A stretch of 64,000 bases of DNA from Naegleria gruberi (taxonomy: Eukaryota): assembly GCA_000004985.1 (NCBI GenBank), contig GG738869.1, one strand, 5' to 3'. A model generated the notes under the pieces. It was not told the DNA's origin, searched no databases, and saw nothing but the letters and a program-made list of their open reading frames with translations. This document shows, one piece after another, positions 36,361 to 52,741 of this stretch; positions within the stretch are counted from its first letter, which is position 1; each line of letters starts with the position of its first letter. Position numbers and translations under genes: made by a program.

Positions 36361-37860
36361 TTATTTCTTCTGTTGTTGTTGTTGAGGAGGTTGTTGTTGT
36401 TGTTGAGGTTGTTGTTGACCTGGTTGGAGGAGTTGGAAATAAGGAGGACCAGCAAATTGGGTTGGATTACCTGTAAATCTTACATTTGGATAACCTGATG
36501 GTGTTGGATTACCTCTTGTCATGTTGGCAACATTCATTTGAGGTCTGAAAACCATTGGAGAAATTGGGAAGGAGCCAGGAGTTGCTCCAGCTCTTAACAT
36601 TTGTTGTTGCATGTTAAATAATTGATTTTGTAAATTAGCATTAGGTGATGCTTGTGGTCTACCATTACTTCCAGGAGTAGGACTTGCAGTTGTTCCCATA
36701 TTGTTTACAGACATGGCTGGAGGACGAGATTGAATATTCTTTGGTGTAGTGGTTGCAGATTGAGGTGTTTGCCTAGCACGAGCAGCAGCTGCTGTTGGAG
36801 TTTGAGGTGTTATTGGAGGTGTAATACCTTGAGGAGGAATGAATGAGGGATTGGCTGTTGTCGAAGGTGATGGTGTTTTAACTGTTGGAGATGGAGCTGT
36901 AACACTTGGTGATTTTTTGACAGGTTGTCTACTTGTGACTGGCGTGGTCTTCTTTTGGGTAGCTCTTTTGGATTCTTGACCAGGTGTTTCAACTTCTTTT
37001 TTAACTGGAATAGATGGATTATGAACTGTTGAGATTTTGATCTTTCCTGATGGAGGAGGTTGAGGCATTTGTGTTGGTGGATTATTGTTATTGGCAGTAA
37101 GAACAGGTAAATTAACTTTGAATGGTTCTTCCTTTCGTTCAGGTTTCTTTGAAACGTGCATAATGGCAAAACTCTTCTTTTCAGCGTCTTTGAGATGAGC
37201 AATATCTGTTTTGTCATCATTTTGAAGTCTAGTTCCCCTTTGCATTGAAAATAACAGAGTATTATTCCTCATTTTTGCTTGCTTTCTTATAGATACATCA
37301 AATCTTTGTTGGTCAGCAGTCAATAACTCCTTACATTCTCCAAGTTTTGAATAAGGACGTTGTTGAGTATTTGCCTTCTTATTACCAGCGCTACCATTCG
37401 GCAATGGAGTATTACTTTGTGTAAATTTCCAATTCTCTTTAATAAATGCAGAACATGATGAAATGATATCATCATGATTAGATCGTTTTTCTATTTGTTC
37501 GGAAGGATTTAATAATGAATATGCAAGTTGATTATTACTAGTTATTTGAGGGAGTTCTTTTGTCTCCTTTGTTTTTTGAAGATCATTTGTATACACACTC
37601 AAAATATTTGTTATTCTAACAAGATTATCTACATTTTCATCCTTCGGATATAATAAAGCCATCCTAAAATTTGAATCATCCTTCTTGATCAATGACTGTA
37701 TAGTCTCCAAATTCTTATTTAAAACACAATACTTGTTCAGTAATGTTTCCCAAGAACATAATTTAATGTCAAACTCGCAAATTTTATCCAATGTATCCTT
37801 TGCAGCTCTTTCTATTTGTTCGTAGGTTCTTTGCGATTCATGGAAAGCTGTTGGAGGCAT
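36361..37860 (-). CDS. Hypothetical protein with an N-terminal helical domain and a long Pro/Thr/Ser/Gln-rich tail ending in poly-Q.
   Basis: 499-aa ORF. The N-terminal ~150 aa have normal complexity (MPPTAFHESQRTYEQIERAAKDTLDKICEFD...). The remainder is PTPS-rich with a terminal QQQQQPPQQQQQKK encoded by (CAA/TTG)n. A Mediator-Med8-like architecture is conceivable but not supported by specific motifs. Confidence 0.45.
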   Translation of the reverse strand: MPPTAFHESQRTYEQIERAAKDTLDKICEFDIKLCSWETLLNKYCVLNKNLETIQSLIKKDDSNFRMALLYPKDENVDNLVRITNILSVYTNDLQKTKETKELPQITSNNQLAYSLLNPSEQIEKRSNHDDIISSCSAFIKENWKFTQSNTPLPNGSAGNKKANTQQRPYSKLGECKELLTADQQRFDVSIRKQAKMRNNTLLFSMQRGTRLQNDDKTDIAHLKDAEKKSFAIMHVSKKPERKEEPFKVNLPVLTANNNNPPTQMPQPPPSGKIKISTVHNPSIPVKKEVETPGQESKRATQKKTTPVTSRQPVKKSPSVTAPSPTVKTPSPSTTANPSFIPPQGITPPITPQTPTAAAARARQTPQSATTTPKNIQSRPPAMSVNNMGTTASPTPGSNGRPQASPNANLQNQLFNMQQQMLRAGATPGSFPISPMVFRPQMNVANMTRGNPTPSGYPNVRFTGNPTQFAGPPYFQLLQPGQQQPQQQQQPPQQQQQKK

Positions 37861-39116: not shown

Positions 39117-39917
39117 TTATTGTTGTTCTCTGTATCTTCTTTCTTGTTCCTTTTCTTGTTGAATCTTCTTTTCCAAAGCCTTTTGTCTTCTCCTAAGTTG
39201 GTCTGGTGTAATTGGACCATAGAAATTGAAGTTTCCTTCATCAATAGATTGACCTTGTTCTGGGTGTTGTTTAATGACTTGTCCTAACAAGTAGTACTTA
39301 TCAAAACATCTAATTAAATCTGATTGAATATTGGTACAATGTTTTTCAAAGGATTGTTTAGTTTGAACATCTTGTCCTTTGAAGATATACTTCCAAAGAG
39401 AGTCATTTTCCATTCTTTCGTTTTCATTGAAACATTCACTAGAAAGTTTGTGTAATTCGGAACAAGCAACTTTTGAAATACAGGCAAATGTCTTTTCCTT
39501 GATTTGAACACATTCATTTCTTTCAGGGAATGCATCACATAATAATTCTTTAGCTTTTGCAAAGTTATCTTTGCATTGATTGATAGAATTTTGTACTTTA
39601 ACAGTGTTATGATAGTCAAAGAAAATATTTTCTTGTAATTCCTCATTTCCGATTTGTTTAACTTGATTAATTTCCGTTTCACATTTTGAATAATCTTCAT
39701 CATTATTAATTAAACAATTATTTAAATTATTTCTAACTTCCGCATGCATATCCTTGTTTAAAAAAGGACGATATAAACAAGTATGGAATTTAAGATAAAG
39801 TGGATGATTGAGTGGTAATTCTTGATCCTTCCTATGTTGTTTATGAATTTCTCTTCTCAAATCTCTATAGATGTCTGCGCATCTGTTTCCGTATGCATTA
39901 TTAACAAAATCGGTCAT
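39117..39917 (-). CDS. Hypothetical Cys-rich protein (12 Cys) with a C-terminal coiled-coil / basic tail.
   Basis: 266-aa ORF. It starts 37 bp from the stop of the giant subtilase gene. No family assignment. Confidence 0.4.
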   Translation of the reverse strand: MTDFVNNAYGNRCADIYRDLRREIHKQHRKDQELPLNHPLYLKFHTCLYRPFLNKDMHAEVRNNLNNCLINNDEDYSKCETEINQVKQIGNEELQENIFFDYHNTVKVQNSINQCKDNFAKAKELLCDAFPERNECVQIKEKTFACISKVACSELHKLSSECFNENERMENDSLWKYIFKGQDVQTKQSFEKHCTNIQSDLIRCFDKYYLLGQVIKQHPEQGQSIDEGNFNFYGPITPDQLRRRQKALEKKIQQEKEQERRYREQQ

Positions 39918-39954: not shown

Positions 39955-42900
39955 TTAATATCTAGGAGAGGTAAAATTAGCTGGTCTTGGTGAGTTGTTA
40001 TTACTGTAAGAAAGAGAATAATTGGATGGAGGGCGAAGAATGTTTTGGAATTTTGTAACTTCAATAGTTTGCAATTCCATTTGTTTCTTGGCATCCTTTC
40101 TTCTCTTCTTTCTACTAAGCAATCTTGATAGAATACAGAACAGTAAAGTTATAGAGATGATTGAAATTAAAATGACTGCTCCAATAATTGAACCTGCAAT
40201 AATGATATAGGTAATACTATAATCAATATTAGATGCCATTGGTACGCTTGTTGTTGGGTTAACACTTGTTGCAGGTGTTGGTGTTGTATCTTGACTACTA
40301 ACCACCAAATAAATACCAGTACTTTTAACAGAAATTACTATGGTATTTGAGTTTGATGAATTAATTGTGCAATTTGACGCCTTTGAGAATATACCTGAAG
40401 ATGTCTCTACTCTACATTCAAGAACTGTTCCTGTCTTAGCTGATCTAGCTCCGGATACTCTCTCCAAAGATAATTGAGCAATATTAGAACTTGAAATAAT
40501 GTTTTTTGATGTACTATCAACTAGAATCTTGAAATCTAATGCCTTAGTAGCAAGTAAGAGTGAGGTATTAGACATCTTGTATGAATTCATTGACAATGTA
40601 ACACTTTCAACTCCTTGTAATTCACTAAGTGAGCTGAATGTTGAACTGAGAGTAAATGGTTGAGCACTTGATTGTGTAACATTTTCTGATAATCCATTAA
40701 GTGTAATTGTACTGACCAGTCTGGCATATCTGTATGAATTAACACCTGTAACTCTAACAGCAGGCATATCAGCAACCAATGTCTTTAGTTTAATGTCTAC
40801 AAGATTGTTGTAAATTGTTTGAATAGTCTTCAAGTCAGAGGAAGAGAAAGAATTTAAAGATCTTGTAGAGACCTTGGCAGAAATATATGTCTTGAAAGTA
40901 TCTACAGATTTAATACTTGAATCAATATCACTGGACTTCATGATAATACTGTCCTTTTCATTAACTTTTGCCATTGATTCTGAGAACTTATTAATACCAT
41001 ACGAAACAGCAGTATCTTCCAAGTAGCTTAGTGAGTTACTAATTGAAGATACAACAGATATTGTTGAAGAAATAGAGGCTGGAGTGACTGATGTAAATGT
41101 TTCCTCTGATTCAATTTGAGTAAAGAATTTTTGAATAAAGGTGGTACCAGATTGTGTCAAAGCTTGCTTTTGTGATTCTGTTTGAGTTGTGGTAGTTTGA
41201 ATCAAAGATAACACTGATGAAACAGTTGAAACTGAAACTGTTCCTTGTTGAATTATTTTGAGAGACTCAATAGTGGAAGCCACATCTTGAGGTTTTGTAA
41301 CAGTTACCTCTGAAATGGATTCTGATGTTGCACCATAGTAATCAGAAACTAATGCCTTTACTTGCCAAATGCCAACAGGCATGTAGGTGGAAATGCTATT
41401 CTTTTCTGAAAGAGCAGATAAAACCATCCAGTCATCACTGCTACCCTTCTTCCTATACATAAACTTATAGCCTAGAGGTAAGTGTACATCAGTCCATCCA
41501 CTTGCACAATTAAGTTCAAAAAGATCTACCAATGTTACACCTGTTGAAGGAAGGATTGCAAAGGTTCCAGCAGTTGGAGGAGAATTTGTTGTAAATGTAA
41601 GAGAAGTTGATCCAGACTTGGAGCCATCTGTTATCTTCAAATTGACAGTGTAAGTTTTTCCTGCAGAAAGTAATGATTTGGAAATGACAAGGTACTTGTT
41701 GGAGGTGGATGGTAACACAAGATTTGAACTTGACCATTGATAAGTTCTGGAAGATGAAAGGGTATCCTTTGAAGAGGCTTCTAAGGTGAGATCACTAGTT
41801 GGATCAATGACAGAAGTAGAGACATCACTTGGAGTTACAATGACAACACGTAAAACAGTTGATTTGGCCACATTAAGTACCTTAACTTTTAGTGAAGCAG
41901 CCATAGTTCTTGTTCCCTTGCTGAATTTAGCAGTAAAGTAATAATTACCAGGTTGCATAGCACGATTAAATGTAATACTGGAAGCAAATTTGTAACTTGC
42001 AGAACTGAAACCATCACACGATCCAGAGGTGTCCACTTCATAACAAGTGAGAGCCAAAGAACCTGTAGTTCCAGTTGAATCACTTGGATCTTGTAAATAA
42101 ACAATAAAGTTAACATCATCTTCATATGATTGAGACATATCCCCAATATTGAAAGAGACCTTAAGAGGTGTTGCCTTAGCAGTCACTTTGAATGAAATAG
42201 ATACACCAGCAGCATAAAGAGTAAAATAATAGTCTCCTTCTTTTGTAAGTTTAGTGAAACTATCACTGAATACCAAAAATTGTCCATCTTGCTTAATTAC
42301 AACGTTATCAGCTGAAGTTGTAGTATTCAACTTATAGACATAGGTCACAGTTTGGGATGCATCGTAGCAAACAGGGAATGTAATATCTGGTGTGATAATA
42401 GCTGTACTTCCAATCATGAAACTAGTTTCAACACCTTCTTTAATTGTAAGTTGAGGTAAAGCCCTTTCCGTTACAGTTAAGGAAACAATAGCTGTTGAAT
42501 AGTTTCCAGAGAATGAGCTTGTTACCTTCACTTGTGCTTTGTAAGTACCCACAATTAATGTATCAGGTGAGAATGTAACACTAGATGTTATTGATTTGTT
42601 GATGAGATTATTTAAAGTTGAGCGTGAACTTTCGCTTGGGGCAGAAATTGCATACCAAGAATAAGTTAACTTTCTACCATCTGATGAAGTAGATGCAGAT
42701 GCATTAAATGTTACAGTTCCACATCCTATTCCAATAGAGCTCTTATCAGATTTTACACTAGCAACAGGTGGAACAATTATATAATCTTTTTGGGTAACAT
42801 TGACACTAACAATGCTTGCTGATCCTGGATATGTGCGAAGCAAGATTGTGTCTCCAATTACTATTGTTGGAGAAGATCCCAAGTTAATTTGAAGAGTACT

Positions 42901-45900
42901 CTTTGTGCCATTCAAAATACAAGTTGGGTTGCTTCCAAGCATAGAAATATCAATAATCACATTACCACAAGCAACTTGTTGATTGAAAGTTGAGAAAATT
43001 GTACCATAAATAATATGTCCCTTAGAATTAAATCCAAAGGAATTGGAGTCAATACCATAATTGCAATCATTTCCATACCATCCCTCCTCACAAGAGTTAC
43101 AGCTGTCACCGATTGTGTGAGGATTACAAGAGCAAGTTCCCTCATCATTACAAGTACCCCTATTACTACATGTTTTGCTTGCAAGACATTCTATATTACA
43201 GTCAGCACCAACAAATCCTTCCTTACAACGGTCACAATTGGATCCTGTCCAGTTACCGAAACATTCACACTCAGCCTCAATATTACAAGCACCGTGTGAG
43301 TTACATGTTACGTTATCATAACAAACACTGTGATTACAATGGGTACCAGCGAATTCTGGAAGACACCTTTCACAATATTGTTGAGGATCATAATTTCCTT
43401 TACATGTACATTCTTCAAAATTAACACATTTTCCTCTTCCACCACAAACACTTGGTCTTGAAGAATTAACATTATTGCAAGAAGTAAACTCGCAATTCAA
43501 ACCAGAATAACCATTAGTACAATTACATTCTGGCATTAAGCTCAAACCAACATCACAAGTACCACGAGAAGAACAAACAGCCTTATTAGTGGACAATAAC
43601 CCATTACAAATAGGAATATCACAATTTGAGCCATTGAAACCTGCTTTACATCTCGAGCATGAAACTCCTTCAAAGTTACCATCACAAACACAAACATGAC
43701 CAACACAAGATCCATGATGGGTGCAACCTCCCTCCTCTTCAGATTTACCATTACAAGTAATAACAGAACAATCCTCTCCTTTGAAACCACTATTACATCT
43801 ACAAGAATTAGCAGCTATACAAACTCCCTGTCCAGAGCATGACTCAGTTTGATTATAACTTCCAAAGCAAATGGGGAAGTCGCAATTATCTCCATAATAT
43901 CCATCGAAACAAGAACAATTATTCTCTGCAATACACAACCCATTAGATGAACAAACATGACGACTTGTGTCAGCATAACCATAACAGTGAGTAGCATTGA
44001 CATTATCTATTTCTGTCTCATTGAAACTTGTGGAATTTTTCAAATCTGTAGAGTTCACAACACTGGTAGCATTATCTGTTGTTGTAGTGTTTGTAAGTGT
44101 ACTGTTATCAGTGTTTGTATTATTCAAAGTGTCTGTACTATTCAAATTTTCTGTACTGTTTAAAGTGTCTGTAGAATTTTGGAAGATTTGAGTAGTATTA
44201 TCAGTAACTGTAGAATTTGAGAGAGTTGAATTGGTTGTTGACGTGTTTGAAGATTCTTGTGGAACAACTTCAAAAAGGCAATCTTCTGTTGGAAGAGTTT
44301 CCCAATATTCAGCCACAAAGGAAGAAAGTAAGGTAAATGGTTGAGAAGAACCTGTGATACCACTATTCAACACTTGAACACTCAGCATGATATTGCTTTC
44401 AGGATCTTGAACATTTTGAATTGATTGCACTGTTACTCTCTCTACATTATTCTTTGTATCAATAGAGGAGCCACCATTTCCGTATAATACACGTGAAGAT
44501 GAGTATTCTGAGGTTTCACTATTCAAATTGTATACATTTACAATCAAATCCAAGTTATTGATAATGTTTGGCAATACTGAAGTACTTGAAGAATAGTCAT
44601 ACCAAGTAAGGGTTGATCTGAATGTTGATGATTCAGTTACGTTCTTCTTCAATCTATAGCACGATCTTAATGTTTGGTTTGACTTGGTAAATGATTCTTG
44701 AGAAATAGATAGTGTTACATTTCTTCCTTTTTCATCACTAAAAAGACTTCCGAGTTGAATTTTTCCAAATCCTTCATAAAAGTTTGGTGTTCCAAAGGCT
44801 TCACTAATACTGAATCTTTGGAATTCATCGTCTGAATAAGCAACACTACCATTCAGAGGAACTGAGCTATGAATCATTGCAGCCTTAATTAAATGTCCAC
44901 TTGGAGCTGAAATTCCAAGCTTCTTGATAAAATATTCTCTCAATAATAGAGCACCTCCAGCCTTTTCCACACAAAGAGTATCATATTTATCAAATTTGCA
45001 TTAATTCAATATCATTTCAACAGCAAACAATATTGTAATTAACAATGTAATTAATAATAATAATAATAGATAATAATGATAATAACGTACGGATATCGGT
45101 GTTGCCATTGATGTGCCACTTTTTGTTATAAGGGCAGCATTGTTTGAAATGGATGGGGAACCAGCACCACATTGAGATGTTGAAATAGAACCGTCTGAGC
45201 GAGCTGAAACAATCTTGAATCCAGGTGCAACAACTATGGGACCAGTAATATTTATCCAAAATCAAACCCAAAAAAAACTTACAATCTGGTTTAATTCTTC
45301 CTCCAATAGCTGGACCTCTGGAAGAAAATGCAGCAAGGTTATTTTCATTATAAATATTTGTATATTGCAAATAAGAGCTAACATAACTATTTGCTGATGG
45401 TTCGTAGGTGGCACTGTCCACAAAACCAGCGTTTGAATTTCCATGAGCTCCAACAGAAATACCATTTTTACAAGTGGAAGGGGCTGTTAAATGTAAACAT
45501 TAAACTACTAGTTCAGTTGAATACTTACTACCAAGGTTTCCAAATCTGGATAATTGCCCATCATTTCCTTGGGCAATCAAAACTGTTGCATCTTGATGGC
45601 TCCAAATAAATTGATCAAACTTTTGGGCATAATCATCATAGGTATTACAAACATCACAACAAGTGTCAACTCCAAACAGGGTTTTACAATCATCGTTTGT
45701 AACAGAATCACCAGCACTAAAAGGAGCTTTATCTGCAGTTAGTGTGCATCCAGTACAGTCATAAGAGCAATCCACATATCCACCAATAGAACATCCCCAA
45801 CTGTTCGAAAATACTTTTGGTGTTGCGCTGCTTGTGTATGGAGTGCTTAATAGGTCAGTAATATCATTAGGGAAATATAATCCACTTCCATCTGCTGGTG

Positions 45901-47378
45901 CCAAGTCCGTAAAATATAATTTGGCACTTGGTGCAACACCATGAAAGGCATTTACGCCAGTTCCAAGGTTTGTGGCTTCCATAGAGCCGACAACACTACC
46001 AGCTGCATTGAAAACAAGTAAGAATGTTAATAATACAAATAAAACTTACCAACATGAGTTCCGTGTCCAGCAGTAACATCAGTAGCATCACCAGAATAAG
46101 CGGTTCTAATCCTAACTACCTTTCTTCTATTCAAATTAAGGGAGGTTGGAGCCCCTGAATGATTGTTATCAGTAAAAAAACAATGATCATAGTCAAGCCC
46201 AGTGTCAGCAACGGCTACAATCTGATCAGCTCCATAAATACCCATATTGTAAAATGGAGTTTCGTGAGGAAGAGATGGATGAGCAGATTGAACAATCTCG
46301 AGGGAATGTTTGTTAGAAATACTAAGGGACAACTTTCTTTGAACAAAGTGAATATTAGGATGAGAAGTGAGAATATATCCAACATAGGAAGCAATGAATG
46401 GTGAAAATGCAATTTCACACACATTTTCAGAAACAAGGATCATTGGCGCAAAATCAACATCTTTCACATACTTTTTAGAAAGTATTGTATTGATTTCATT
46501 CACCAATTTCTCAGTTTCTTGTTGTTGAGTTCCCAATGTGATAGATTGAACAGATGGAATGACTGAAATAACAAATCTAATCAGGTTTGATTGCTCGAAT
46601 GTTTGAGAAATTCTTGTCGAATTACTGACATTTCTCAACGATCTTTTTGGAGGGGTTCTTTTTCTTTCAAAAGCCAAAGACTGCAATTTTTGGAAATCAA
46701 AAGTTGATTTAAATCTAGATTCATACTCTCCAATCCACTCAATTTCATTATTATTGACAATTTCTGTAACATGACTTGCTGTAGTAACAACAGAGTAAAT
46801 GTTAGCAGACAAGACGTTATTTTCTCTTATGAACGTATTTTCAATAGATGATCCATCTTTGATTTTTACAATAAATTGATAATTTGGTTCCTCCAAAACA
46901 TCCCTTCCATCAATTCTTCTCTTCACTTTTCTAGAAAGATGTCTTAAACGTGAAGGGTTATTTAACAGATTTCTATCATTGGTTAGTTCATATCCATTCT
47001 TATCAATAGAAATACTTCTAAGATTATTTTGATTTTTCAAAGCTAGAAAGGCTACTGATGGAATAGTATCTTTTGAGTAAAGTTTTTCCCAATCTTGTTT
47101 GCTTACTGATTCAAGCTTACTGGAAATACTAAGAATGTGATGATTTTAATAAAATCGGAATAAAGAGATTAAAAATCAATACGCTCATATTCTACATACT
47201 CTTTGCAATATACTCCAATGTTGAAAAGAATAATTGCCATCAAACATAAACCAATCAATGATGTTCTTAAACACCATCTCCTCTTATAGAATGGTGCAAC
47301 ACCATCATTAACAACAACAACACTATGCATCATATTTTTCCAAGCCTTACACTTAAACTTCTCCAATACTACCCTCAC
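39955..47378 (-). CDS. Giant membrane-anchored subtilisin-like serine protease of about 2360 aa with EGF-like repeats. Six exons: 47200..47378, 46050..47128 (or ..47119), 45529..46002, 45283..45483, 45091..45233 and 39955..44961.
   Basis: The catalytic triad is split across exons. Asp is in VAVADTGLDYDHCFF. His is in GHGTHV|AGSVVG, which spans intron 2 (GTAAGT). The Ser motif GTSMATPIS|AGGALLLREYF spans intron 5 (GTACGT). SSRGPAIGGRIKPD|FVAPG spans intron 4. All exon phases sum correctly, giving a 7083-nt CDS. The N-terminal exon has a hydrophobic signal-anchor (LIGLCLMAIILFNIGVY). The long C-terminal exon has about 10 EGF-like Cys modules (CDFPICFGSYNQTESCSGQGVC...), Ser/Thr-rich mucin-like regions, one TM helix (IIAGSIIGAVILISIISITLLFCIL) and a short cytoplasmic tail. 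Confidence 0.75.
43100..43990 (-). repeat. Intragenic array of EGF-like Cys-rich modules. It is similar to the modules in the receptor kinase at 600..1120.
   Basis: The pattern C..G..G..C....C.CxxG(Y/F)xGxxC repeats about 10 times. The consensus ICFGxxxxxxxxCSGxGxC is shared with the gene at the window start. Confidence 0.55.
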
Positions 47379-47909
47379 AAACGTTGTTGTTCTTTTGTAT
47401 TTTCTTTGTGATTAAAATATTATTTCATTTTTCCCCAGTGCTTCTACCTTACTACACTATTATTGACGCACACAAGCTTAGAAGCTGTCGAACACAACGT
47501 TCATAATACAGCTTCATTTGGGCACATAAAGAGTAAGTTTGCAGCAACGGTAGAAGGGCATGTTTGGTGAAACTTTACCCAAACATGTAAAGTTCAAACT
47601 TCTTAATACTGGCTATCATGAACAATGCACAAAGCTTCTATTTGCTAGAAAGAATACTCATCCTCTCTAGAACGCCAACCGGAAGCAATTATTCTTTGCA
47701 CTCTTTCAAATTGTATAAATGTTTATCATTCCCAAGCTTGGCTTGTCAGATGAAAGTTCCAAAGTTGTATCATTAGAAAACAAATTTTAAATAATATTTA
47801 AATGAATATTTAAATAATAATATTTTCATGATTTAAATTATTAATTTCATGTCAATCTCCTCACCTATGGTATGATGGATAATTTGTTTTAAAATTCATT
47901 TAAATAAAA

Positions 47910-49912
47910 ATGCTTCCATCCACGTCAAATGGCAACCCATCATCATCGGGTGATGAAGCAAATCAACAAGGAAAATTAAAGAAACCTGTAAAATCAGTCA
48001 TTCCAAAACTTCAAAATTGTACAGTTAATTTATCATTATTTAGAAAAGTAGCTGCCGATGAATTGAGAGAAATGATAGATTCGGTGGTAAGTCTTCTTAT
48101 TTCATCAAGACTTTGATCATCATCAATTATTAATTTAATTTTACACTATATAATCATGATACAATCAAATGTAAATAATAGCAAACTGCAAATCCTCATA
48201 AGGCCTTTGTTTTTGATCCGGAATTGATTGGACCACTTTCATTAATTGTTCCGTATAGTTTTTTCATTGCTAAAGGAACAGGTGCTACTGAACCAGAGAT
48301 TGGATTAATCAAACAAGACAAGATCAATTTTAAAACTAATGTTGGAAGTGTATTTTATGTGACAAGACCTAGAATTGATTTAATCAAGATTATGGCATCA
48401 CAAATTAATCATATTGTTTCACAACCATCACCACCAAATATTTACATTGTATTTGTGCCAAGAAGAACTTTGATTTGTGAAGTTTTATTGGAAAAGATGA
48501 ACATTTTACAACACATTCAAAAACCTTTATTAGAATTTTCTCTTGATTTTATTCCATTTGATAATGATCTTCTTTCTATGGAATTACCATATGCATTCCG
48601 TGAATTTGAAGTTGATGGTGATTATTCAGCTCTTTACAGTGTTGCAAGATCTATAATGAAGTTACAATCTGTGTATGGCATAATTCCAAATATCAAATAT
48701 GTGGGAAAGAGTGCTAAAATGGCCTTTGAAATTTTGCAAGAAATGACTCACAAATCTGAAACTAATCTAAATCAAATCAATCCAAGTATTGGAAATTTAA
48801 TATTCTTTGATAGAAAAGTTGATTTGGTGAGTCCTCTCGTAACACCATTGACCTATGAAGGTCTTTTTGATCTGTTTTATAGAATTCAAAATAACTTGGC
48901 AACTATTCCTTTCTTAGCTCAACCAGTAAAGAAAGAAGAAGGTGAGGAAGAATCACAACAACAGCAGCAACCAGTTAAAAGAGTTCCAACAAGATTGCCA
49001 CTCAATGATGATGACGAAGTTTTCAAACAAGTTCGTCACATGAACTTCCTTGGTGTTGGTGCTAAATTGGGTTCAATCACTGAAGAAATTGATAGGATCT
49101 ATGAAAAGAGAAAAACACTCAATGCTGTAGATGAAATCAAAAGCTACTTTACTCTATTGCCTGAAGTTCAACAAAAGCACAAGGATTTGACTGCACATAT
49201 TACCATTGCTACAGAAATTAAGAAGGAAACCTTAAAGCAAGAATTTAGAAGAAGAATTCGTACAGAACAAGATATTTTGTCAGGTGAAGATCCAAAGGCA
49301 TGTATTGAGTATATAGAATCATGTATCATCAGACAAGACAGTATTACCTCTGTTTTAAGATTGATTTGTTTGTATAGCATTGTGAGAAATGGGTTGAGTC
49401 AATCTGAGTATGATCATTTGAGACAAGAAATTGTACACAGTTATGGACATTTTGCTGTTCTTTCTTTAAAGAATTTGGAAGAAGCAGGTCTGCTCAAAAA
49501 ATCTCAATCTAAAATCAATTGGTCCTCATCTCCTTTTGCCACAATGAAGAAGGGATTGAATTTAGTTGTGCAAGAAATGACAGATGAAACAAACCAAAAG
49601 AATATGGCTTATGTGCACTCGGGCTATGCTCCAATGAGTTGTAGAATTATTCAAGAATCACTTAATAATTCTAAATGGGAATCTTTGAAATCATTATTCA
49701 AAGGAACTGAACATGTAGAATTCATAGGTGAAAGTGTTTCTCCAGGTATGCAAATTTCTAGTCAAGATGTTACTGTAGTATTCTTTTTGGGTGGTTGTAC
49801 GCTTGCTGAAATCAGTGCTCTCAGATCAATTACCAATCATCGTTTCATTGTACTGACAACCAAGATTATTAACTCTGATAATTTCATTTCTTCCATGTTG
49901 GAAAAACTTTAA
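47910..49912 (+). CDS. VPS33: Sec1/Munc18-family protein VPS33 (HOPS/CORVET). Two exons: 47910..48086 and 48182..49912.
   Basis: VNLSLFRKVAADELREMIDSV|QTANPHKAFVFDPELIGPLSLI..., where | marks a 95-nt GTAAGT..ATAG intron, parallels VPS33A [63 protein letters not shown]...FSLDFIPFDNDLLSMELPYAFREFEVDGD matches [22 protein letters not shown]...[29 protein letters not shown]. Confidence 0.8.
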
Positions 49913-51855
49913 TTTATTGAATCAAAATACACAAGTCTATTATCAAATTCTGAACAAATAATTTTTTGATTTGGTGCATGAGGATGCATAACCCTTACTT
50001 GTGAGATGTTGTTTTTACATGTACCTGTAAACATTTTACAAGAAAGTTTCATCGACCTATGAATATCGGCAGAGTTCTTCCTAATGCTTACATTATCAAC
50101 AGTTTCCCATTCACAAATATTTGGTCTACTCCAATCCAATACAGCTACAGAAGTGCCGTATGGAGCTAACACAAATAATCCATTATCACTCTCTATCACA
50201 TCACCTTTCTGATTGAAAGAACCCAAGCTAAATGATCGTGAGTCTTCATAAAATTTGCTTACTCTCCTAGTTAAAGGATCCAATAAACCAACTCCACCAC
50301 TCGTAGTCAAGAAGTGAATATATCCACTCTTTGTTGTACCAAATGACTTAATGCCCTTTGAAGGAGCACTACTACTTGCAGCAAATTTTTGCTTAGGACC
50401 TCTAAATAATTGAGTTACCTCAGTTATTTGGAGACCTGTTTCAGTTCGGAATTCATTATTAATAGAAGGATGTACAGGTAGTTCAAGATTGATAATTGAT
50501 TTTTCAAGTCTATTGTTCAGCTCTTGAACGCTAGACGAAACATTAATGCTCCTAACTGAGTCGTTCATACTCTTTCTGATATCAAAAATTTTGAGATCCA
50601 TACTATGAAAGGATGATGCATAAATGTAATTTGAATCATTCTTATCAATAGAAATGCAATCAAAAGGATCAGAATAAAACATGGGAGCAGAAGTATTGTG
50701 AATGGTTGTTTTCTTTTTTGCACTCTTTTTAGGAACCAAAACACTAACTCCCTGTGCTGTAGTTTTTGGAATTGAGCTGTTTGCAGTATTAGAAGCAGTA
50801 GTGGTACTGGCAGCACTGCTTGAACTGGTCATTGGCACATTAACTGGAATTTTCTTAGTATTTTTTGTCCTTACATCAATGATATCTAGTTTACCACTCT
50901 TTTTTGATAATATCAAAGTATTCATATCCCTATTTTCAAAATCTAGTACACTATCATTTAGAACAGTACTCTTGATTTTTCCTGTTGTCATGTCAAATAA
51001 GCAAAGAGCTCCTGTGTAGGATGAAAGTGTTGAAACTGAAAGCTCATCTGAAAAGTAAGGGTTAATTCTTACATTTGAAATCCTTGCATCATAGAATGAA
51101 TGCCTGAAATATCGTTCTCTATCTACAAAACTACACATTGTTACATTTCCCTTATGTGTTCCATATACCATTGAATTTCCACAAACATCCATACAAGTAA
51201 CATATTCTGTAGCTTGTGTGTCTGCCATATCTACCAATCTAGCCAATTCTGATGGTTTGTTCTTGAACCAATTTTGAGTTTCCTGTCTTTCGTAAACCTG
51301 TCCCACATGTTTAGACAAGGGAATACCTGTCAATTTACGATAAAAGAGTTGTGATGTTGTTGGAGGTTGTGCTTTTCTAATAGCATGTTGATAAATCTGA
51401 TCATGTGAATAATGTGAATGGTACGGATAAACACAAGTACAACCCACAGGTGTAAAGGCAAGTGAAGCAATTTGAGTACTTTTAGGAGCACTTGAAATCT
51501 TTCTCACCACATTAAAAGTACTAGAGAGTGGTTTAAAGTGATAATCATTGTTTCCTAACATTAAAATATCATCATCTTCATCATCAACTTCTATTGGATC
51601 ATCAATTATTTTCCTCTTGGCTGATGATGGAGATTTTGTTAGAGAGGAATCTAGCGATTTTCGTTTAATGGTTGAAGTTGATGATGTGGATGAAGATGAC
51701 CTATTGTTAGCATTGTTGTTATTGGTTGTGTTGCTCACAGAGTCTCGGCTTGACGATGCTGGATTGTTGATAGTTTTTGCTGTGCCAAAATATGAAGCAA
51801 GTGTTTTTTGTGATTTTTCTTCTTTTCTTTTTTTCACCATTTTTTTTGGCGCCAT
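49909..51855 (-). CDS. WD40 beta-propeller protein with an N-terminal PIP-box-like motif and a low-complexity basic region.
   Basis: The start is taken as MAPKKMVKKRKEEKSQKTLASYFG. QKTLASYF fits the PCNA-interacting Q-x-x-L-x-x-(F/Y)(F/Y) consensus. There is a Ser/Asn-rich linker. The C-terminal ~400 aa are WD-like blades. The stop codon overlaps the VPS33 stop on the opposite strand. Confidence 0.5.
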   Translation of the reverse strand: MAPKKMVKKRKEEKSQKTLASYFGTAKTINNPASSSRDSVSNTTNNNNANNRSSSSTSSTSTIKRKSLDSSLTKSPSSAKRKIIDDPIEVDDEDDDILMLGNNDYHFKPLSSTFNVVRKISSAPKSTQIASLAFTPVGCTCVYPYHSHYSHDQIYQHAIRKAQPPTTSQLFYRKLTGIPLSKHVGQVYERQETQNWFKNKPSELARLVDMADTQATEYVTCMDVCGNSMVYGTHKGNVTMCSFVDRERYFRHSFYDARISNVRINPYFSDELSVSTLSSYTGALCLFDMTTGKIKSTVLNDSVLDFENRDMNTLILSKKSGKLDIIDVRTKNTKKIPVNVPMTSSSSAASTTTASNTANSSIPKTTAQGVSVLVPKKSAKKKTTIHNTSAPMFYSDPFDCISIDKNDSNYIYASSFHSMDLKIFDIRKSMNDSVRSINVSSSVQELNNRLEKSIINLELPVHPSINNEFRTETGLQITEVTQLFRGPKQKFAASSSAPSKGIKSFGTTKSGYIHFLTTSGGVGLLDPLTRRVSKFYEDSRSFSLGSFNQKGDVIESDNGLFVLAPYGTSVAVLDWSRPNICEWETVDNVSIRKNSADIHRSMKLSCKMFTGTCKNNISQVRVMHPHAPNQKIICSEFDNRLVYFDSIN

Positions 51856-52741
51856 GTTTGTGTAACGGTTACCTTGGAGAAACCAAGCATTATTAAATAA
51901 TAATACCAGGTTCCCAATATGCTTTGAGTAAAAGCCTGCCATCTTTTGAAAGATGGCTTTCGTTATTAATATCATCAAACTTTAGTCAAAATCAAAATAA
52001 TAATTATCAATTCAAACCACCACCAAATAAGATTATTTAGAAGTTTATTCACTACAGTTTTAGTGCATTATTTTACTGTAATGATTGGACACCTTTTTGC
52101 GCCAAAAACTTACCGTTAGACGTTGAGCAGCAACTACTCATGTTCAGTTGAGTCGAGATAGAATACATTGAAAGGTAGTGATATCTTATACAATTTTTCA
52201 AACCCCCTAAGAGAGAAGAGGATGAACATTTTCAAAATATAAGGAATTTCCTACTTTATCTATTGCATAAGAATTTTCTTCATTTTCAGTTTATGATGAT
52301 GACTTGTAGCAACGAGAGCATGCTTCATATCGTTTGACCATTTTGATAGTGTGCAGAGCTGAAGGCGCTTAAACATTGAATGACGTCTTTCGACTTAGTA
52401 TCAGCACAAGCTTTGAAGAAGGAAATTCCTTATATTTTGAAAGCTTTGGCTGTGGTGCTCTCACTTCAAATCTGCTTGTTTGGAAACCAAATCCAAAAAA
52501 ATATCAGAACGCACGCGCACTGGTTGAAACACTCACCTGTTTCCCACCAAATAATCTACGATTAATTTGTTCGTTAAAGTTTACTTGAATTTTTATCGCG
52601 GTGCTCTCATTGTTTGACATCATCGGCATTATAGGCGAATAAAAATCATCAACTCATACAACTTGTATAATCATCAACTTCATCAGGCAACAATATTCCT
52701 CATCATTAATTATTATTTGGAAAAGAATACAATTGTTTTAG

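Follow-up and report, generated by a model that had tools for sequence, protein, structure and literature searches.

A protease-headed surface protein of Naegleria gruberi predicted to stand on an EGF-PKD/REJ-GAIN stalk

A 64,000-nucleotide stretch of contig GG738869.1 from Naegleria gruberi (GenBank assembly GCA_000004985.1), referred to here as the window, has a G+C content of ~33% and short GT..AG introns. Within positions 39955-47378 its minus strand carries a single gene for a subtilisin-like protease of peptidase family S8. As read from the sequence, the encoded protein runs from N- to C-terminus through a cytosolic N-terminus, a signal-anchor, a propeptide of ~300 residues, an S8 domain with a beta domain, a linker, seven EGF modules, a PKD/REJ region, a GAIN domain, a transmembrane (TM) helix, and a cytoplasmic tail. 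The interpretation favored here, at a probability of roughly 0.7, is that this one gene encodes a 2342-residue surface protein in which a protease head is carried on an EGF-PKD/REJ-GAIN stalk and serves generic cell-surface proteolysis.

Six exons, joined from a minus-strand reading of 47700-44800 together with a three-frame map, give a coding sequence of 7029 nucleotides with one terminal stop codon, encoding 2342 amino acids. The original prediction had likewise joined six exons in consistent phase; its total of 7083 nucleotides (~2360 residues) could not be reproduced, and its gene start at 47378 proved to be a GTG taken from a bacterial rule for open reading frames (ORFs), with the first ATG lying at 47333. 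Exon 1 (47333-47200, like all those that follow on the minus strand) begins at this ATG and encodes a 20-residue cytosolic N-terminus followed by the hydrophobic signal-anchor that had been expected of it (residues 21-44, CLRTSLIGLCLMAIILFNIGVYCK). Exon 2 (47119-46050) encodes the propeptide region (residues ~45-340) and the start of the S8 domain, including Asp350 (46206-46204) and His397 (46065-46063). The S8 domain continues in exon 3 (46002-45529), which contains an insert with eight cysteines (residues ~472-520) and the oxyanion residue Asn548 (45565-45563), in exon 4 (45483-45283), which extends to RIKPD/F, where the slash marks the exon boundary, and in exon 5 (45233-45091), which supplies the catalytic Ser668 (45111-45109) within GTSMATP. 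Everything from the end of the S8 domain through the C-terminal tail is encoded by exon 6 (44961-39955), which closes with the stop codon at 39957-39955. The five introns are 80, 47, 45, 49, and 129 nucleotides long and all are bounded by GT..AG; the last of them (44962-45090) reads GTACGT...AAAAG and contains AT-rich simple repeats. Over the last exon, the minus-strand ORF at 39955-44970 is 100% identical to the deposited protein XP_002677046.1 (P0001; NAEGRDRAFT_49279, D2VG77).

Across junctions 2-5, the number of residues in the spliced N. gruberi protein equals that in its N. lovaniensis and N. fowleri homologs. N. lovaniensis has GHGTHVVGTALG where N. gruberi has GHGTHV/AGSVVG, GNVGYPATAKNS for GNLG/TPSTCKNG at the end of exon 3, RIKPDVVAPG for RIKPD/FVAPG, and GTSMAAPAVAGSLALIREFF for GTSMATPIS/AGGALLLREYF, in each case at the same length. 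A tblastx comparison of the N. lovaniensis locus with the window returned collinear high-scoring segment pairs that end at exon ends 46051, 45530, 45481, 45097, and 44961. An alternative donor for intron 3, located 3 nucleotides upstream (GNLA/PST), was dropped because the adopted model retains the homolog length. Exon 1 is the least certain part of the model; the version adopted here is likely, having been chosen on its hydrophobic anchor and by analogy with the N. lovaniensis and N. fowleri proteins, in which a cytosolic stretch and one TM segment, dissimilar in sequence, also come first.

The subtilase and EGF/REJ parts are read as one gene, as originally proposed, because the last intron splits the helix bearing the Ser motif (GTSMATPIS/AGGALLL), which is contiguous in N. 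lovaniensis and N. fowleri. A polyadenylation site or gene boundary at 44970-45090 is excluded, since this interval is intron 5 and lies inside the conserved helix that follows the catalytic Ser. The N. lovaniensis homolog has only one intron, of ~125 nucleotides (PYSW02000038.1, 8179-8303), which sits six codons upstream of the place of N. gruberi intron 4, and outside of it the protease domain there is thus essentially uninterrupted. N. lovaniensis has no intron at the position of any of the five in N. gruberi, which indicates that intron positions in this gene have turned over within the genus.

Compared over 44961-47513 on the minus strand, the deposited model NAEGRDRAFT_49279 (2129 amino acids) is mis-spliced. 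It uses another first exon, passes from HGTHV to DKAPFSAGD with a loss of 86 exon-3 residues, and has the out-of-frame piece GNLGKVQLLEEELNQIAGGALLL in place of exons 4 and 5. This replacement removes the Ser motif, and as a result the model has no precomputed Peptidase_S8 match. The gene model of the original prediction is better than the public one. The N. fowleri gene is also divided in RefSeq, where FDP41_001861 (P0122, 1869 amino acids) begins inside the Ser motif (MATPAVAG...) and a separate 761-residue model covers the N-terminal part; it is whole in CAG4715060.1 (P0269, 2677 amino acids).

A Pfam scan of the corrected protein places Peptidase_S8 (PF00082) at residues 342-715 (E 8.6e-37, 127.4 bits against a cut-off of 21.8). 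The family motifs occur in order, D350 in VADTGLD, H397 in GHGTHVAG, N548 in AQGNDG, and S668 in GTSMATP, and all four residues are invariant in an alignment of 32 sequences and align with the catalytic residues of KP-43, an oxidatively stable alkaline protease of Bacillus sp. KSM-KP43. The protease is accordingly predicted to be catalytically intact and of the zymogen type. An N-terminal protease with an intact D/H/S triad had been called correctly; what does not hold is the spread of that triad over five exons, since D350 and H397 are on exon 2 and S668 is on exon 5, with Asn548 on exon 3, and it is the S8 domain that spans exons 2-6. In a phmmer search of PDB sequences, the nearest solved structures were KP-43 (1wmd, E 1.4e-32) and SubHal (5fax, E 3e-32). 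The 1wmd alignment covers chain residues 16-137 and 142-408 of 434, C-terminal domain included, and reaches residue ~855 of the Naegleria protein, which points to a KP-43-type S8A enzyme with a C-terminal beta domain. On this alignment, the end of the S8 domain and the KP-43-like beta domain occupy 44269..44961 (residues 675-905).

Ahead of the catalytic domain, the segment YQFIVKIKDG...IEWIGEYESRFK matches a conserved pre-catalytic consensus of prokaryotic relatives, and its position makes it the presumed propeptide. The insert of ~50 residues and eight cysteines is common to other Naegleria proteins, and KP-43 and the non-Naegleria relatives are unaligned there. The Pfam scan of the protein gave no match to the P (homo-B) domain (PF01483) at E<=0.1 and none to the PA domain, to I9, or to ABC_membrane and ABC_tran, both of which are present in the relative P0003. 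No kexin or furin chain appeared among the PDB matches at E<=1e-3. The subtilase is thus unlike a kexin in its recognizable domains, and the earlier statement that it is not a standard proprotein convertase agrees with the missing P-domain match and with KP-43 as the best solved relative. Its nearest non-Naegleria S8 relatives are multidomain proteins of protists, among them fusions of S8 with an ABC transporter (P0003, 218 bits, and P0006), a Guillardia CUB protein, and S8-PA-TIG-EGF proteins of Diplonema and Flectonema.

Following the beta domain, an Asn/Ser/Thr-rich linker (43987..44268, residues 906-999) holds 15 N-glycosylation sequons (NxS/T), as well as the sole coding tandem repeat (18 nucleotides x 3.6 at 44110-44173). 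The EGF array (43063..43986, residues 1000-1307) comes next. Parsing of its 50 cysteines gives seven modules rather than the ~10 first counted, of which three are six-Cys modules of the teneurin/tenascin type and four are eight-Cys modules of the laminin type; the EGF profiles score 59 bits (EGF_Teneurin), 46 bits (EGF_2), and 71.5 bits against a cut-off of 65 (EGF_TEN). The PKD/REJ region (41308..43059, residues 1309-1892) contains a REJ match (PF02010) at residues 1667-1912 (E 7e-37, 127.5 bits against a cut-off of 25, profile positions 160-421 of 452) and a weak PKD_4 match at residues 1405-1443. A mucin-like, Ser/Thr-rich stalk had been proposed for this part of the protein and is replaced by a PKD-REJ-GAIN assembly of the polycystin/suREJ type, which accounts for ~930 C-terminal residues of the ectodomain. 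Proline is low, at 1-6 per 100 residues, only the one short tandem repeat is present, and the Ser/Thr-rich blocks coincide with the PKD, REJ, and GAIN domains. Low-complexity sequence is limited to two stretches, the linker at residues 906-999 and ~20 Pro/Thr-rich residues before the TM helix.

Between REJ and the TM helix, structure prediction identifies a GAIN domain (40276..41307, residues 1893-2236) composed of seven helices and a 13-strand sandwich. The AlphaFold2 (AF2) model of residues 1893-2236, built from an 18-sequence alignment, has a mean predicted local distance difference test (pLDDT) score of 88.4 and a predicted TM-score (pTM) of 0.82. In a Foldseek search of the PDB, the best eight matches, which were the sole ones below E 1e-3, were all GAIN domains of adhesion G-protein-coupled receptors (GPCRs), with E from 6e-10 to 5.5e-4 and probability 1.00; they belong to BAI3 (4dlo), BAI2 (8oek), CELSR1 (8vy2), latrophilin-1 (4dlq), CD97, and GPR56. 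Sequence identity to these matches is 7-12%, and the TM-scores are only 0.36-0.50. An AF2 run on residues 1893-2300 with three sequences, in which the helical part was confident and the beta part had a pLDDT of ~30, yielded generic helical bundles in Foldseek and was superseded.

The GPCR proteolysis site (GPS) at the end of this predicted domain is degenerate. The canonical motif CxCxHLTxF is present in 40 of ~150 relatives of the C-terminal module that were examined, and hmmalign places the GPS of the distant proteins P0141, P0174, P0185, P0192, and P0197 in the same columns as ISVKSTGIY here. The first Cys pair (C2190 and C2205) is kept, and the second pair (CxC) and the HL/T triad are lost. 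At the place of HL/T, the turn between the last two strands of the AF2 model consists of K2220-S2221-T2222, followed by G2223. In polycystin-1 and adhesion GPCRs, a kinked turn with HL/T drives cis-autoproteolysis (PMC4810088). Self-cleavage at the modeled turn is unlikely here, because it has no His and would present Gly or Thr in shifted registers. The corresponding turn in N. lovaniensis is HR/T, in which the His lost from N. gruberi is kept.

A Pro/Thr-rich stretch (40222-40287, residues 2233-2254), the sole Pro/Thr-rich stalk of the protein, leads into the TM helix (40117..40221, residues 2255-2289, Kyte-Doolittle maximum 2.95) and a cytoplasmic tail of 53 residues (39955..40116 with the stop codon; KKRRKDAKKQMELQ; SRKKRRKDAKKQMELQ...SPRY). 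The protein has only two hydrophobic segments, this helix and the signal-anchor at residues 21-44 (Kyte-Doolittle maximum 2.24), and the single C-terminal TM helix with its short tail is as first described. The Pfam scan found no PLAT or PKD_channel match in the protein and no recognizable signaling domain in the tail, and inspection of the tail by eye showed no clear sorting motif.

The best homolog, N. lovaniensis C9374_009380 (P0002, 2643 amino acids), is 33% identical over 95% of the query. The architecture is kept in three species, N. gruberi, N. lovaniensis (P0002), and N. fowleri (P0269), and P0269 shows the full order anchor-propeptide-S8-linker-EGF-FZ-EGF-REJ-GAIN-TM. The FZ element is a Frizzled-like insert between EGF modules that is found in P0002 (residues ~1290-1470), in P0269, and in the N-terminal parts of the N. 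gruberi proteins P0121 and P0123; UniRef names P0002 an 'FZ domain-containing protein'.

A profile of the C-terminal module, built from three Naegleria proteins and searched exhaustively, retrieved 2392 relatives at E<=1e-3, of which the best ~150 were examined for S8 domains and the GPS. This search was used instead of a word-indexed one with the C-terminal 1033 residues, which had returned one paralog only. The top matches are Naegleria proteins, and at least seven N. gruberi paralogs with other heads contain the EGF-PKD/REJ-GAIN-TM module, a recurrence that bears out the expectation of a lineage-expanded EGF module. P0121, P0123, P0124, and P0129 combine Cys-rich or Frizzled-like heads with EGF arrays; P0136 (XP_002678784.1, NAEGRDRAFT_66049) has NHL repeats, many EGF modules, a REJ/GAIN-like region, a TM helix, and a cytoplasmic protein kinase; and P0138 (XP_002680062.1) has the order EGF-REJ-GAIN-like-TM. 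The last of these is labeled 'basal body protein NBP family', an odd label for a large extracellular single-pass architecture. Module relatives in the other species include P0126 and the S8-headed P0002 of N. lovaniensis and, in N. fowleri, the truncated model FDP41_001861, whose full form is CAG4715060.1. No S8 domain occurs in the N. gruberi paralogs P0121, P0123, P0124, P0129, P0136, and P0138. When the S8 region was compared by phmmer with 274 proteins, S8 was found, among the ~150 module relatives, only in the window gene and in its counterparts from N. lovaniensis and N. fowleri. The EGF-PKD/REJ-GAIN-TM module is a chassis reused in a family expanded in Naegleria, and the window gene is its protease-headed member.

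Another gene with the EGF-like Cys module lies at the start of the window. At 2-2371 on the plus strand, a receptor kinase cut off by the window start contains NHL repeats, EGF modules, a TM helix, and a Pkinase domain interrupted by one or more introns (ORFs 182-1927 and 1952-2371). The Cys-module consensus ICFGx8CSGxGxC, correctly noted at the outset as common to both genes, occurs in it three times as PICFGx8CSGxGxC, and its EGF modules carry the motif PICFGx8CSGRGxC. Nearer to the subtilase gene, its upstream neighbor on the opposite strand (48224-49912, plus) encodes a Sec1-family (SM) protein (Pfam Sec1, E 1.7e-94). The downstream neighbor at 39117-39917 and the ORFs at 36364-37860 and 49912-51978, all on the minus strand, gave no Pfam match.

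Sea-urchin REJ1 (suREJ1) likewise joins an EGF module and REJ to a single TM segment with a short tail. The order PKD, REJ, GAIN, membrane is also that of polycystin-1 and sea-urchin REJ proteins (PMC4810088). In contrast to these, the Naegleria protein has neither the HL/T triad nor the second GPS disulfide, lacks PLAT, the 11-TM/channel part, and lectin or LRR domains, and carries a protease as its distal head. Adhesion GPCRs follow GAIN with seven TM helices, whereas here a single one follows; the BAI2 entry among the Foldseek matches (8oek) is described as an uncleaved-state GAIN domain, as the Naegleria domain is read to be. With KP-43 and SubHal, the protein shares the aligned D/H/N/S residues and the C-terminal beta domain. 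Those are secreted bacterial enzymes of ~430 residues, whereas the Naegleria protein has the eight-Cys insert between His and Asn, a propeptide region of ~300 residues behind a signal-anchor, and ~1440 more residues ending in a TM helix. Diplonema papillatum P0023 and Flectonema neradi P0005 resemble it in joining an S8 head to long extracellular extensions with teneurin-type EGF modules, but differ in a PA domain inserted in S8, in TIG domains, and in having no REJ match. A further eukaryotic example of a membrane-tethered cell-surface S8 protease is provided by Dictyostelium TagA/TagB/TagC (PMC3743828), in which the tether is an ABC transporter in place of EGF-PKD/REJ-GAIN and one TM helix; S8 + ABC proteins of TagA/B/C architecture are among the nearest relatives of this S8 domain outside Naegleria. 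All of the parts are known and no new principle is involved; it is their combination that is new. No paper on these Naegleria proteins, or on this domain combination, was found in the literature.

A working model can be assembled from these parts. Upon entry into the endoplasmic reticulum, both ends of the protein would remain cytosolic and the whole middle would become lumenal. By analogy with other subtilases, the propeptide would act as an intramolecular chaperone and be removed autocatalytically. This cut would free the enzyme from its N-terminal anchor and leave the C-terminal TM helix as its sole remaining hold. The active protease would then stand at the end of a long, rigid, glycosylated stalk at the cell surface, or at an endocytic or phagosomal membrane, where it could cleave extracellular or lumenal proteins without being released from the cell. 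The stalk is most likely a spacer and binding module rather than a tethered-agonist signaling device, given the predicted lack of GPS self-cleavage and the single TM helix after GAIN. The cell-surface protease of the original prediction fits this topology, and its 'adhesin' and 'prey or matrix interaction' roles are guesses.

Several observations weigh against this interpretation, and some searches gave it no support. The GAIN assignment depends on predicted structure, and Pfam gave no GPS or GAIN match in the post-REJ region even at E<=10. A profile of the post-REJ region only had weak matches to GPS-bearing proteins (19-26 bits), which in ~15 proteins among 275 sequences end at the GPS or within ~10 residues of it; with E scaled to 1e6 sequences, this Naegleria profile had no non-Naegleria match. 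The profile of the C-terminal module found nothing usable among PDB sequences, the best match being a KIAA0319-like PKD domain at E 0.34. The deposited gene model has a different first exon. Finally, the N. lovaniensis and N. fowleri homologs are ~33% identical overall and non-syntenic (synteny with the N. lovaniensis locus was looked for and none was found), which makes them presumed rather than strict orthologs, and they have the FZ-like cysteine-rich insert that the window protein is without.

Generic cell-surface proteolysis is ranked first among the possible functions, and TagC-like, digestive or matrix, and adhesive roles are inseparable on present data. The TagC protease domain is exposed at the Dictyostelium surface and processes AcbA into SDF-2 (PMC3743828). 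A Naegleria protease working in the same manner would convert a secreted precursor into a peptide signal for encystment or for amoeba-to-flagellate differentiation, with the stalk binding the precursor or a partner cell. This is an unlikely but plausible function: the TagA/B/C-architecture fusions P0003 and P0006 stand close to the Naegleria S8 domain, and the gene is single-copy and kept in three Naegleria species, with the paralogs varying their heads. Yet the protein has no ABC transporter part, its identity to the S8-ABC relatives is only 26-28%, no candidate substrate has been identified, and enzymes of the KP-43 type are proteases of broad specificity.

Somewhat less probable is a reading in which Naegleria evolved a modular family of surface proteins on one membrane-proximal chassis with a non-cleaving GAIN domain, fitted with S8, Frizzled-like, and NHL heads and, in one member, a cytoplasmic kinase. 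In the protease-headed member, the REJ-GAIN stalk would then be more than a passive spacer and would sense a ligand or mechanical pull and thereby gate or position the protease. It is doubtful that the protein is an adhesion or sensing receptor outright, with REJ-GAIN-EGF as its functional part, as in sea-urchin REJ1 and polycystin-1, and the protease used for self-processing or shedding, or vestigial. The module is indeed common to protease-free paralogs, the receptor kinase P0136 included, and REJ followed by GAIN next to the membrane is the polycystin-1 order (PMC4810088). Conservation of the four catalytic residues and the propeptide in three species, however, argues for an active enzyme, and the GPS cleavage triad is absent from a protein with one TM helix and a tail of 53 residues in which no signaling domain is recognizable. 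More doubtful still is a digestive role, in which the cytoplasmic tail would route the protease to phagosome or lysosome membranes for the breakdown of ingested bacteria. Naegleria is a bacterivore, and the heavy N-glycosylation (43 sequons) and disulfide-rich modules would suit a hydrolytic compartment, but the tail shows no clear sorting motif by eye and a digestive enzyme of the lumen has no obvious need of a stalk of ~1400 residues. Two separate genes, a secreted subtilase (exons 1-5) and an EGF/REJ membrane protein (the 3′ ORF) with a terminator and promoter in 44962-45090, are highly improbable: intron 5 exceeds the other four in length and AT-richness and has a weak acceptor (GGAAAAG/G), and the long 3′ ORF alone has 1671 codons, but the S8 fold would then break in the helix right after the catalytic Ser, exon 5 reaches its donor without an in-frame stop, the long ORF is listed with a GTG start and lacks an ATG close to its 5′ end, the junction is unbroken and identically spaced in N. 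lovaniensis and N. fowleri, and the deposited model likewise joins both parts.

For Naegleria, the corrected gene model adds an intact surface subtilase to the protease inventory, in which NAEGRDRAFT_49279 (D2VG77) stands without an S8 annotation. The presumed ortholog in the pathogen N. fowleri (CAG4715060.1) extends this to a species in which proteases, both secreted and at the surface, attract attention as virulence factors. If the stalk did sense, for example, contact with prey or substrate, the sensing principle of polycystins and adhesion GPCRs would have a protease-coupled relative in a deeply diverging eukaryote. While the REJ-GAIN module is best known from animal polycystin-1 and adhesion GPCRs, its predicted presence in Heterolobosea as a reusable stalk bears on the age of the GAIN/REJ pairing and on the role this pairing may have had before 7TM or 11TM signaling parts were attached to it.

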